A stretch of DNA of 64,000 nt from an uncultured Chloroflexia bacterium (GCA_963713795.1 CAVQNC010000010.1:346375-410374); one strand, 5' to 3'; shown: positions 34,390 through 39,727, counted from the stretch's first letter. A program made the numbers and translations. Notes: generated from the letters alone by a model not told the origin.

Positions 34390-35021
34390 CCGACGGCGGG
34401 GGAGAGTTCGTCTACGCTGTTCCGCGGGACCTCCTGTTCTCCGGCGTCGACCCGTGGCTCGGCGTCAAGCGCGAAGGCGTCGAAGCGGTGCTGGCGCGGG
34501 CCGGCGGGTCCGGCGGCTTCGTGTCCAGGGCGGCGGCCGAGACCGACACTTCGCTGAAGCAGATAATCCCGTACCTGGTCCTGCTCGACGGCGAGCGCAT
34601 CTTCCTGATGAAGCGGACCCGCGCCGGCGGAGATGCCCGGCTCCACGACCGTTACTCGATCGGCGTGGGCGGGCACCTGAACCCGGGCGACGGCGGAATC
34701 CTGGGCGGTCTGGCGCGTGAGTGGCAGGAGGAGATCGAAGCCGACTTCACGCCCGAATTCAAGTTCCTGGGCCTGCTGAACGACGACACGGTCGATGTCG
34801 GCCGCCACCACCTCGGGATCGTCTATCTGGCGGAGGCCACCGGCCGCGCGGTCGGCGTCCGGGAGACCGACAAGCTGACCGGATCGTTCGAGGGGATCGA
34901 CGCCCTTCGCGCGGTGTACGACCGAATGGAAACCTGGAGCCAGCTCGTCCTGGATGCCATCACCGGCCCGGCGTTCCACGGGCCGGAGTTTCGCGCCGCG
35001 GATCGCGCCGATTTCGGATGA
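34386..35021 (+). CDS. NUDIX-like hydrolase, hypothetical
   Basis: Degenerate Nudix-box-like GGHLNPGDGGILGGLAREWQEEIEA; stop overlaps the next start (ATGA). Confidence 0.4.
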   Translation: MTDGGGEFVYAVPRDLLFSGVDPWLGVKREGVEAVLARAGGSGGFVSRAAAETDTSLKQIIPYLVLLDGERIFLMKRTRAGGDARLHDRYSIGVGGHLNPGDGGILGGLAREWQEEIEADFTPEFKFLGLLNDDTVDVGRHHLGIVYLAEATGRAVGVRETDKLTGSFEGIDALRAVYDRMETWSQLVLDAITGPAFHGPEFRAADRADFG

Positions 35022-35656
35022 ACCGATCGTCAGAGTCCCGAGTCAATCCCATGAGCGACCCACTCGGGCCGTCCACAGAGAGCGGCATGTTCGCGAAAGA
35101 AGCGTATCTGACCAGCGAGCCGGTTCGGGCGAGCGTCAAGCCCGCGGTCGCTCGAGACCAGGCCTTCGACACGGCCTTTGTCGCGGCGCTCGAGGGCGAG
35201 CTCGCGATGGCCTACCGTTTCGCGGGCTACCTCCTCGCGGACTCGGCGGAGGCCCAGGACGCCGTGCAGGAGGCGTCGGTCCGAGCGTGGCGCGGATGGA
35301 AGGACCTTCGCGAGCGCGATCGCTTCCATGCCTGGTTCAGCCAGATCCTCGTCAACGTGTGCCGGACGCGGCTTCGGCAGCGCAGCAGGAGGCGGGCCCT
35401 GGACGTGGACGACGTCGATCTGGAGAGCGCCGACCCGTTTCGGGCCGCCCTGGCGCGTGACACGGTCGGCCGGGCGCTCTCCTCGCTGAGCCAGGAGCTG
35501 CGCATGGTCGTCGTGCTGCGCTACTGGGGGGAATTGTCGCTGGCCGAGATAGCGGACCGCCTTCGGATCCCGGTCGGGACTGTCAAGTCGAGGCACCACG
35601 CCGCCCTGCAGGCGTTGCGCCGGCGGATCCAGCCGCGGGAAGGGGGCAGTCGATGA
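35018..35656 (+). CDS. ECF-type sigma-70 family RNA polymerase sigma factor
   Basis: Region 2 AQDAVQEASVRAWRGW...FHAWFSQILVNVCRTRLR; region 4 LSQELRMVVVLRYWGELSLAEIADRLRIPVGTVKSRHHAAL; the track ORF's upstream 99 codons are non-homologous. Confidence 0.8.
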   Translation: MNRSSESRVNPMSDPLGPSTESGMFAKEAYLTSEPVRASVKPAVARDQAFDTAFVAALEGELAMAYRFAGYLLADSAEAQDAVQEASVRAWRGWKDLRERDRFHAWFSQILVNVCRTRLRQRSRRRALDVDDVDLESADPFRAALARDTVGRALSSLSQELRMVVVLRYWGELSLAEIADRLRIPVGTVKSRHHAALQALRRRIQPREGGSR

Positions 35657-38232: not shown

Positions 38233-38506
38233 GATCCGGAGCCACGGGGCGCACGGGGCCGCGGGCGCGCGGCGCCCGTGGCGCTCGGGTTGCGCAGGGA
38301 ACGTACGGGCCGCCCATCGGGTTGGGCGGATGACCGGCCGCCCGCGGTTGGTTGCACAACAGGGCTGCGCCAGTCGGTCGGCGACGCCTCCGGCGCCCCG
38401 GCTGCCTATAATCTGGCGGTTCGTCCCGAGTGTGTGCACAAACGGGGGCGCTCGTGCGCCACCTGCACGTCTTGAGCGGTGGGATCCGCACAAACAGGGT
38501 GTAGTG

Positions 38507-39727
38507 ATGGCCGTCAGGATTCTTGTCATCGATGCCGACCCGACCGTTCAGCGCGCGCTCGGCCACGCGCTGTCGCAGGCCGGCTACGAGGTGTTGTCCT
38601 CCGTCGACGGCCCGGGAGGGCTCAAGAGCGCCCGATCGGACAAGCCGGCACTGGTCCTCGTCGCGGCCAATCTGCCCGGCGTCGACGGCTTCAACGTGGT
38701 CTCCCGGCTGCGCATCGAGGACGGCCCTTCTACGCACACGCCCGTGATCGTCCTGCTGGCGGAGAACGAGGCCGAGTCTCGGGGCAAGGCTCTTAGGTCC
38801 GGCGCGGACGACTATCTGATCAAGCCGTTCCACCCGGCCGAGCTGATGGCTCGCATGCGCAGTCTGCTGGCGCGCTACAGGCCTGATGAGCAGCACGGCC
38901 TGCCGGCGGCGCGAGGGGCAAACTTCATTCCGGCCGCGCAGGCGGCGCCGAAGAAGCGGGAGCCCGCCCGTATCCTGGTCTTCTACGGCGCAAAGGGCGG
39001 CGTGGGAACGACGACGCTCGCCATCAACTCCGCCATCGCGCTCCACAGGGAGCTTGGGCGGCGGGTCTGCCTCGTCGACGCGAATCTCCAGTTCGGAGAC
39101 CATCGAGTCTTCCTGGATATCGGGCTGGACCGGCTGAGCCTGGTGGATCTTGCCGCCGCGCCGACCGTGGACATCGAGCTCATTCGCCAGATTCTCGTCA
39201 AGCATGAGTCGGGCGTAGATCTGCTGCTCGCCCCGCCCTCGCCCGAGACGGCCGAACTCGTCAACCAGGATCACCTCCCGGAGATCGTCAGCCGCATGGC
39301 GGACGACTTCGACTACATCATCATCGACGTCGACAAGCGTCTCGACGAAGTCAACCTGAGGGTGATGGACGTGGCCGACGCGATCTTCGTCGTGATGACG
39401 GCCGACCTGCCGTGTCTGAAGAACGTCCGCATGGTGTTGGAGACGATCGGGCACCTCGGCTACGCCGATGAAAAGGTCAAGCTGATCCTGAACCGCTCGA
39501 ACGCGTTCACAGGGATAAACGTCAAGAACGCGGAGAGCGCTCTCAAGCGCCGTATCGACTACCAGGTCCTCAACGAGTACCGCTCCGCGATCAGCGCTCT
39601 CAACAGCGGGTCGCCCTTCATGTTCGCGAAGGCGGACTCGGTACTCGGGCGGAACGTCATGGACTTCGTGAAGGCAATGGACAAGGACTTCGACGGGGCG
39701 CCGCACGGACCTCGATCCGGGCGATAG
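38507..39727 (+). CDS. Second receiver-domain plus ParA/MinD-type ATPase (CpaE/TadZ-like paralogue)
   Basis: REC VRILVIDADPTVQRAL...VLVAANLPGVDGF...DYLIKPF; Walker A LVFYGAKGGVGTTTLAINSAIAL. Confidence 0.7.
   Translation: MAVRILVIDADPTVQRALGHALSQAGYEVLSSVDGPGGLKSARSDKPALVLVAANLPGVDGFNVVSRLRIEDGPSTHTPVIVLLAENEAESRGKALRSGADDYLIKPFHPAELMARMRSLLARYRPDEQHGLPAARGANFIPAAQAAPKKREPARILVFYGAKGGVGTTTLAINSAIALHRELGRRVCLVDANLQFGDHRVFLDIGLDRLSLVDLAAAPTVDIELIRQILVKHESGVDLLLAPPSPETAELVNQDHLPEIVSRMADDFDYIIIDVDKRLDEVNLRVMDVADAIFVVMTADLPCLKNVRMVLETIGHLGYADEKVKLILNRSNAFTGINVKNAESALKRRIDYQVLNEYRSAISALNSGSPFMFAKADSVLGRNVMDFVKAMDKDFDGAPHGPRSGR

Follow-up and report, generated by a model that had tools for sequence, protein, structure and literature searches.

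Anti-sigma factors are the typical neighbours of sigma factors belonging to the extracytoplasmic function (ECF) type (PMC7826278), which raises the question of what controls the ECF sigma factor encoded in a 64,000 nt stretch of DNA from an uncultured Chloroflexia bacterium (GCA_963713795.1 CAVQNC010000010.1:346375-410374), where the gene directly behind it encodes the membrane protease NfeD with an N-terminal extension. The whole of this stretch is referred to here as the window, and all coordinates are counted from its first letter. The region has a G+C content of about 68%, and the genomes most closely related to it are metagenome assemblies that carry the label Candidatus Limnocylindrales or Limnocylindria, phylum Chloroflexota. 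We favour the reading, to which we give a probability of roughly 0.55, that a sigma/anti-sigma module has been inserted into the conserved pdh-nudix-nfeD-spfh operon of one Candidatus Limnocylindrales clade and that the NfeD extension is the candidate anti-sigma. An earlier note on this DNA had proposed that the NfeD N-terminus sequesters the sigma factor, an interpretation which the sequence comparisons reported here partly support.

The sigma gene and the NfeD extension across relatives

The occurrence of the sigma gene and of the extension was compared in 163 loci, of which 160 were obtained by scanning JGI metagenomes and a single genome for each GTDB species, and three from look-ups of two orthologues. 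Screened with the window proteins, the loci fall into clade A, with an NfeD at least 60% identical, and clade B, with one that is 41-51% identical. The two clades compare as follows.

Gene order: pdh-nudix-sigma-nfeD-spfh-recParA-comM in clade A; the same minus sigma in clade B
NfeD N-terminus: the extension in clade A; a signal peptide (Arg-rich n-region, hydrophobic core, A-x-A) in clade B, about 40 residues before the protease
Sigma gene directly upstream of nfeD: 25/25 loci in clade A; 0/103 loci with nudix directly upstream in clade B
Median distance from the end of nudix to the protease domain: 968 nt in clade A; 154 nt in clade B

The adjacency of ECF sigma gene and nfeD, whose conservation the earlier note had suggested surveying, follows the extension: a same-strand sigma gene stands immediately upstream in every extension-bearing locus and in none of the unextended syntenic ones. 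In clade B nudix leads straight into nfeD and there is no linker, the protease domain lying a few residues past the A-x-A signal peptidase site. The difference between the clades is an insertion of about 815 nt between nudix and nfeD, which consists of the ECF sigma gene and about 66 codons in frame on nfeD. Because the two are present or absent together, at the same spot in a conserved operon, sigma gene and extension are taken as one insertion. The transmembrane (TM) pattern R-R-x-x-x-A-x-A-R-L of clade A resembles the n- and h-regions of clade B signal peptides; the ancestral NfeD signal peptide is the probable source of the TM helix, and the likely addition was the sigma gene together with about 60 codons fused ahead of that old signal peptide. 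By this comparison the fusion has turned the cleavable signal peptide of the relatives into an internal signal anchor, with the new peptide facing the cytoplasm. In a neighbour-joining tree clade A forms a monophyletic group that branches as the sister of the unextended clade and does not fall inside it, so that gain of the insertion, and not its loss, rests on outgroup parsimony, the outgroup NfeDs being without the extension.

Open reading frame (ORF) listing together with Pfam and NCBIfam scans gives the following order of genes in the window, all of them on the plus strand.

33379-34389, plus strand: prephenate dehydrogenase (pdh, tyrA-like), which heads the string of overlapping genes (Pfam PDH_N, PDH_C)
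34386-35021, plus strand: Nudix-like protein (PF00293 NUDIX in the orthologue at locus L003)
35018-35656, plus strand: ECF (group 4) sigma factor, 212 aa (Sigma70_r2, Sigma70_r4, TIGR02937)
35632-35646, plus strand: Shine-Dalgarno-like GGGAAGGGGG in the last sigma codons, 7-13 nt ahead of the nfeD start
35653-37257, plus strand: NfeD1b membrane protease with N-terminal extension, 534 aa (Pfam domains, homologues, AlphaFold)
37333-38232, plus strand: SPFH/Band 7 protein (stomatin/HflK-like) with one N-terminal TM helix (Pfam Band_7, 3.6e-35)
38507-39727, plus strand: REC-ParA/MinD-like ATPase of TadZ/CpaE-like architecture, 406 aa (Pfam Response_reg, AAA_31)
From 39822, plus strand: comM-like Mg-chelatase gene

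The four genes from sigma to REC-ParA are thus found on one strand within 35018-39727, as had been claimed. The description of sigma and nfeD as overlapping, coupled genes also stands, with the correction that the string begins two genes earlier, at pdh and nudix. Overlaps of 4 nt join pdh to nudix, nudix to sigma and sigma to nfeD, both in the window and in relatives. The nudix stop shares an ATGA with the sigma start, an overlap that is conserved, and the overlap of sigma and nfeD is likewise an ATGA made up of the sigma stop and the nfeD start, as the earlier note had read it; this overlap measures 4 nt in 22 of 24 relatives and 1 nt in the remaining two. A purine-rich, GAAGGGGG-like Shine-Dalgarno motif lies 7-13 nt 5' of the nfeD start in the window and in all 23 distinct clade A relatives. 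By these signals sigma and nfeD are translationally coupled. The GGGAAGGGGG of the window also codes for the conserved E-G-G of the sigma C-terminus, and across 35632-35656 the ribosome-binding motif of nfeD falls on the conserved P-x-E-G-G-x-R at the C-terminus of sigma; conservation of the sigma tail may be driven by the nucleotides and not by the protein.

Domain scores place the sigma factor among the ECF (group 4) sigma-70 proteins: Pfam finds Sigma70_r2 at residues 63-125 (9e-15) and Sigma70_r4 at 153-201 (7e-16), TIGR02937 scores 82 bits against a cut-off of 42.9, and Sigma70_ECF scores 21.2 bits against one of 21.1. No named ECF subfamily was reached with the NCBIfam models, the best of which, TIGR02983 (SigE-fam_strep), gave 105 bits against a cut-off of 141.6, and every equivalog model scored the protein far under its cut-off. 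The best PDB matches are RpoE, SigL and SigW, with SigH also among the closest solved structures, and all four belong to anti-sigma-regulated systems. In a homologue search each of the 120 matches listed was an orthologue of this one clade with an identity of 73% or more, and outgroup sigmas and partners that could speak to the origin of the cassette were not traced among them. Gene callers differ on the start and give products of 212, 201 or 189 aa (alternative starts M12 and M24).

Two loci outside this pattern carry an unrelated ECF sigma gene divergent from nfeD (L057, 4077-5853, minus strand; L142, 2-631, minus strand), with an nfeD-spfh pair that has no nudix upstream; in L057 a single-pass protein without Pfam match lies behind this sigma gene. 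Within this class nfeD-spfh and ECF sigma genes may come together more than once, a generalisation for which two cases are too few.

The NfeD extension and known anti-sigma domains

The NfeD protein of the window combines, as NfeD1b proteins do, a ClpP-like Ser-Lys protease with multi-pass membrane and OB domains and an adjoining SPFH gene. Pfam finds NfeD1b_N at residues 121-230, NfeD_membrane at 336-450 and the NfeD OB domain at 475-531; PF25145 scores 57.3 bits against a cut-off of 40, and PF24961 and PF01957 exceed their cut-offs. The protein is divided as follows.

35653-35850, plus strand: predicted cytoplasmic extension, residues 1-66 (conservation, substitution rates, AlphaFold)
35851-35922, plus strand: TM helix or signal anchor, residues 67-90 (hydropathy peak 70-88, AlphaFold helix 63-89)
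35923-36006, plus strand: Pro/Ser/Ala-rich linker from TM helix to protease, residues 91-118 (AlphaFold confidence, substitution rates)
36007-36642, plus strand: ClpP-like serine protease domain, residues 119-330, predicted extracytoplasmic (phmmer to PH1510-N)
36643-37257, plus strand: NfeD membrane domain (five predicted helices, 335-463) and OB partner-binding domain (475-531), predicted cytoplasmic

The protease domain is matched by phmmer to PH1510-N (2deo, 3bpp) with an E-value of 6.5e-21, and in this alignment Ser193 (36229-36231) and Lys237 (36361-36363) fall on the PH1510-N catalytic dyad, Ser193 on the residue mutated to Ala in 6m4b. Both residues are invariant in the relatives and NfeD is probably an active protease. 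Its C-terminal part matches 3wwv, the stomatin operon partner protein. The SPFH gene, whose product is the presumed partner of NfeD, begins 75 nt 3' of nfeD in the window and succeeds it in both clades, in the related loci whose contig reaches past nfeD. An AlphaFold model of NfeD built on an alignment of 85 sequences has a mean pLDDT (the per-residue confidence score of AlphaFold) of 72 and shows one plus five helices. There are Arg residues ahead of the first helix and R-M-R-R-Q behind the last; the positive-inside rule and the helix count together predict a cytoplasmic position for the N- and C-termini and an outside one for the protease domain. The single TM helix that had been described ahead of the ClpP-like domain is thus seen here too, at about 67-90, but the segment before it measures 66-69 aa and not about 80. 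The linker has a pLDDT below 50 at residues 88-114 and a ratio of nonsynonymous to synonymous substitution rates (dN/dS) of 0.45, and is a candidate region for site-1 cleavage.

Several observations concern whether the extension is a genuine part of the protein. In the nfeD frame the G+C content of third codon positions is high from 35640 on, across the extension. Among the NfeD matches listed there were 120 homologues, 111 of which cover at least 98% of the query and 118 of which are at least 520 aa long; in all 118 of these orthologue clusters the frame is open, without a stop, from the extension through the TM helix. Across 85 sequences with overall identities of 62-75%, six residues do not vary (L30, P31, L37, P38, W39 and Q42), and all orthologues that sit beside the sigma gene share the conserved N-terminal region, the absence of which would have spoken against the proposal of the earlier note. 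With dS near saturation and the values accordingly rough, residues 9-42 have a dN/dS of 0.28 and residues 43-66 one of 0.63, as compared to 0.22 for the protease domain and 0.25 for the OB domain. Judged by frame, ribosome-binding motif and conservation, the extension is real and translated. An internal start at M57, which would leave a normal signal peptide, was considered and rejected, since this Met is not conserved and no orthologue has a stop between extension and TM helix. The conserved core of residues 9-42 (35677-35778) is made up of an amphipathic helix, residues 7-24, and the motif L-P-D-x-x-A-x-L-P-W-x-V-Q. AlphaFold models the helix at 7-24 (18 residues, pLDDT about 70) and a second one at 32-35, and gives residues 37-66 a pLDDT below 50. 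The conserved positions are those of the hydrophobic helix face and of the Pro/Trp motif, a combination that, on the alignment, looks typical of a binding interface.

A cognate anti-sigma factor is usually encoded directly after its sigma gene (+1), from a start that is translationally coupled. The expectation of the earlier note that position and topology are those of a membrane anti-sigma factor was borne out by the +1 position, the ATGA coupling and the predicted N-in single-pass topology, and no other candidate for a separate anti-sigma gene was found in the conserved locus, either in the window or in relatives; a canonical one in the operon of relatives was the other finding that the note had named as refuting its proposal. 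The genomic hallmarks of an anti-sigma gene that ECF classification uses are in this way all present: it adjoins the sigma gene, overlaps it with a Shine-Dalgarno motif, encodes a predicted N-in protein and is co-conserved (25/25 against 0/103). As in RseA/RpoE, RsiW/SigW, RsiP/SigP and RsiV/SigV, the gene lies directly 3' of one for an ECF sigma, with translational coupling between the two, and the product has a cytoplasmic N-terminus, one TM helix and an extracytoplasmic part, here predicted; release by proteolysis, which those systems use, would here be required by the covalent tether. Unlike in these systems, there is no class I similarity, the segment is smaller, with about 35 conserved residues and one long and one short helix, and the extracytoplasmic part is not a passive sensor but a serine protease, behind which come five further TM helices and an OB domain in the cytoplasm.

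Several results weigh against an anti-sigma role. The extension has no Pfam match, anti-sigma families included (28 members, E-values up to 10), and a profile search of the PDB returned no relevant chain and no anti-sigma chain. Its likeness to the single-pass protein behind the unrelated sigma of L057 was tried and rejected, with an hhalign probability of 0.7% and a resemblance in E-x-R-L-x-x-F-A that is not significant. The AlphaFold model, with one helix of 18 residues and one of 4, is under class I size. The search turned up no ECF-type promoter, and the sigma factor itself is extended at its N-terminus by a conserved segment that could be the regulator. Finally, the co-occurrence of sigma gene and extension is a single evolutionary event and counts as one observation.

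Searches for relatives of the extension remained within the clade. A word-indexed profile search of 5.8 billion proteins gave no matches outside it, and HMMER against 1.84 billion representatives gave 18 matches, with none outside the clade among those inspected; these were the same fused gene, intact, truncated or frameshifted, the weakest spanning 29-33 residues. The extension has no H-x3-C-x2-C and no Cys or His motif. The anti-sigma-domain-like helices that the earlier note had suggested looking for are therefore not those of a class I fold, which was not seen, AlphaFold giving an amphipathic helix and a short helix at modest confidence. The extension is not a class I anti-sigma domain (RseA, RsiW, ChrR, RskA, ZAS), a conclusion in which the predicted structure counts weakly. 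Anti-sigma domains also include the two-helix clamps of class II and the lineage-restricted RsbN, which is without known sequence similarity (PMC6101532). In predicted size the extension comes nearer to class II (CnrY, NepR), whose two short helices clamp the sigma-2 and sigma-4 surfaces, and the number and size of its predicted helices are compatible with such a clamp; homology to CnrY, NepR or RsbN was not found. The likeness to CnrY, NepR and RsbN lies in the short helical segments, which in those proteins fold on sigma, and the difference is that CnrY and NepR are small stand-alone proteins whereas the segment described here is fused to an enzyme.

The locus also resembles the NfeD1b-stomatin pairs (PH1510/PH1511 of Pyrococcus horikoshii; YqeZ-FloA of Bacillus subtilis) in its Ser-Lys ClpP-like protease, in the order of protease, membrane and OB domains and in the adjoining SPFH gene. 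A signal peptide stands at the start of canonical NfeD1b proteins, at least 96 of the close relatives here among them, whereas those of clade A begin with the 66-residue head and linker. The yqeZ-floA-yqfB operon, the NfeD-flotillin operon of Bacillus, belongs to the SigW regulon (PMC8144471), in agreement with the statement of the earlier note that this operon is an ECF target. In B. subtilis SigW, an envelope-stress sigma factor, acts on the YqeZ-FloA operon from a distance, whereas here the ECF sigma gene lies inside the operon. A literature search found no paper tying NfeD to anti-sigma function, and neither NfeD nor SPFH is named in the main text of the paper that re-classified the ECF sigmas (PMC7826278).

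Promoter-like elements and neighbouring genes

A consensus scan identified no promoter and no terminator; just two -10-like elements, CATAAT and TATAAT, stood out. CATAAT at 33491-33496 lies just ahead of the probable pdh start (a GTG near 33505) and is conserved in 21/22 clade A loci, which suggests that sigma is co-transcribed with housekeeping genes from this element upstream of pdh. The 260 nt 5' of sigma contain no ECF-type promoter and are nudix coding sequence with ordinary codon-periodic conservation. Within 33487-33507 the sequence GGCCATAAT is found about 8 nt before the probable pdh GTG in 21/22 clade A loci, which suggests a leaderless or near-leaderless pdh transcript; the GGCCATAAT pattern occurs in just 1/60 clade B loci, where the coordinates are possibly misplaced. 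Divergent from pdh, at 32518-33300 on the minus strand, lies a gene for a NarL/GerE-type response regulator, which is present in both clades and is therefore not specific to the sigma cassette.

The REC-ParA gene occupies an ORF of 38330-39727 with a likely start at 38507, about 275 bp beyond the SPFH gene. Its product matches Response_reg (8.7e-21) and AAA_31 (2.6e-13) in Pfam and has a conserved deviant Walker A motif, KGGVGTT, in which G168 and T-T are invariant. One feature of the gap in front of it stands out.

38407-38412, plus strand: TATAAT, -10-like, about 95 nt ahead of the REC-ParA start (invariant in the clade A intergenic alignment)

TATAAT occurs once in the window and is found within 200 nt upstream of REC-ParA in 18/18 clade A loci. 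An invariant TATAAT in this gap makes REC-ParA probably a separate transcription unit. The earlier note had suggested that the protein may add spatial control; it appears to lie outside the module, as it occurs with or without sigma and has a promoter-like element of its own. The phosphorylation acceptor of the REC domain (residue 53, 38663-38665) is Ala in 19/19 clade A loci, while in clade B it is Asp in 70/72 and Glu in 2/72. As the acceptor Asp is intact in the sister lineages, the protein probably began as a true response regulator; the loss of the Asp in the sigma clade could reflect a rewired input or a coincidence within one lineage. The clade A protein resembles TadZ/CpaE in having a receiver-like domain without acceptor Asp followed by a MinD/ParA ATPase with deviant Walker A KGGVGTT. 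It differs from them in its surroundings, with no tad/cpa pilus genes near and with spfh upstream and comM and dprA downstream in all loci.

The comM-like gene of the window is broken at about residue 379 of 528, and its 3' part, together with dprA, which follows comM in all relatives, is absent to the end of the window (39822-64000). A large serine recombinase is encoded at the comM junction (40672-42483, minus strand), and past it lies island-like cargo, with genes for Kelch and SHOCT proteins, an N6 methylase and a RelA/SpoT-like protein and with type I restriction fragments. By its appearance this is an integrative element, longer than 23 kb, that has entered comM.

Proposed control of the sigma factor

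Binding of the extension to sigma is preferred because sigma is the only component of the locus that appears together with the extension; protease, OB domain and SPFH protein do without it in at least 103 syntenic relatives. Helix 7-24 and the L-P-x5-L-P-W-x-V-Q motif would bind the co-translated sigma factor in the manner of a short clamp and hold it at the membrane. The sigma gene would be transcribed with the housekeeping genes from a sigma-70-like promoter, and for an ECF sigma made constitutively we infer that control is post-translational. Since the tether is covalent, release of sigma would need proteolysis. Destruction of the tether would free sigma by a cut just outside the membrane followed by intramembrane and cytoplasmic proteolysis, the candidate regions for the first cut being the conserved G-S-x-A stretch after the TM helix and the flexible Pro-rich linker that is absent from clade B. 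Candidate site-1 enzymes would be signal peptidase, which is reported to make the site-1 cut of RsiP (PMC8844934), or the protease domain of a neighbouring NfeD acting in trans. The output may include envelope-protective genes such as nfeD-spfh, by analogy with SigW of Bacillus.

The alternative that survives best, although we consider it rather unlikely, is that the extension is functional without binding sigma and serves NfeD itself through contact with the OB domain or the SPFH ring, in localisation or as a degron, sigma being controlled by its own N-terminal extension, a mode put forward for ECFs of the SigC and BldN types, or by an anti-sigma encoded elsewhere. The sigma factor does have about 55 residues ahead of region 2 (35018-35182), which contain one conserved element.

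35084-35110, plus strand: motif G-M-F-A-K-E-A-Y-L, sigma residues 23-31 (66-sequence conservation)

In this motif, G-M-F-x-K-E-A-Y-L in its conserved form, F25 is invariant in the 66 sequences and M24, E28 and L31 are at least 90% conserved. AlphaFold of sigma alone gave a model of pLDDT 52.6 in which the N-terminal region is disordered, a model of too low confidence to judge this extension. N-terminal extensions regulate ECF121, ECF36s4 and ECF12s1 (PMC7826278). The absence of likeness between the NfeD extension and any known anti-sigma domain also fits a service to NfeD, and with both NfeD termini predicted to be cytoplasmic an intramolecular contact is geometrically possible. Against this stand the syntenic relatives, in which OB domain, SPFH protein and protease manage without the extension while sigma alone co-appears with it, the low AlphaFold confidence around the extension with no sign of docking, and the coupled +1 position that is usual for a cognate anti-sigma.

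A more elaborate version of the sigma-binding reading would make the fused protein a self-contained switch of regulated proteolysis and give NfeD and SPFH a part in release. That release of sigma is coupled to the state of the protease or of SPFH, as the earlier note had supposed, is purely inferential, and we regard as quite doubtful the specific form in which the NfeD protease, gated by the assembly state of SPFH, cuts the linker of its neighbour in trans as the site-1 enzyme, with the loss of the REC Asp marking a two-component input that has been replaced.

Constraint on the extension bears on the possibility, distinctly improbable in our view, that it is a by-product of the insertion: the nfeD start would have moved upstream to regain coupling, leaving a tolerated spacer which is retained mainly because the overlap codes for the sigma C-terminus and the ribosome-binding site. 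Residues 43-66 are indeed loose (dN/dS 0.63) and predicted to be disordered, long open frames arise readily in high-GC genomes, and the lack of any homologue outside the clade among 1.84 billion representatives is what would be expected for de novo sequence. However, only 4 nt overlap with sigma, so that dual coding is no explanation of the constraint; residues 9-42 are constrained like the catalytic and OB domains (0.28 as against 0.22 and 0.25), six residues are invariant over 85 sequences that are just 62-75% identical, and a hydrophobic helix face and a Pro/Trp motif have been conserved.

A very improbable last alternative, that signal peptidase routinely cuts after the TM helix to yield an anchored anti-sigma of about 95 aa and a normal mature NfeD, the fusion being a shared export signal and NfeD/SPFH having no part in sigma release, draws on the resemblance of the TM helix to the ancestral cleavable signal peptide, on a conserved small-residue stretch V-R-T/S-x-G-S-x-A after it as a possible cleavage site and on the reported cut of RsiP by signal peptidase at site 1 (PMC8844934), but the canonical A-x-A of clade B has been lost in clade A and a linker of about 28 residues added, and as the extension would still be the anti-sigma this is a variant of the favoured reading and not its opposite.

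Pairs of NfeD and SPFH proteins are found across bacteria and archaea. If the trans-cut form of release were true, SPFH/NfeD microdomains would be sensors of envelope stress, and a signalling role would be added to this widespread protein pair. If the peptide sequesters sigma by whichever route of release, it would be an anti-sigma segment without detectable relatives and the first to be attached to a protease, and NfeD/SPFH would stand upstream of transcriptional signalling, not just downstream of it. The lineages offer a natural comparison for this, since the sister lineages keep the operon without the insertion and the candidate motif is small (helix 7-24 and L-P-W at residues 37-39).

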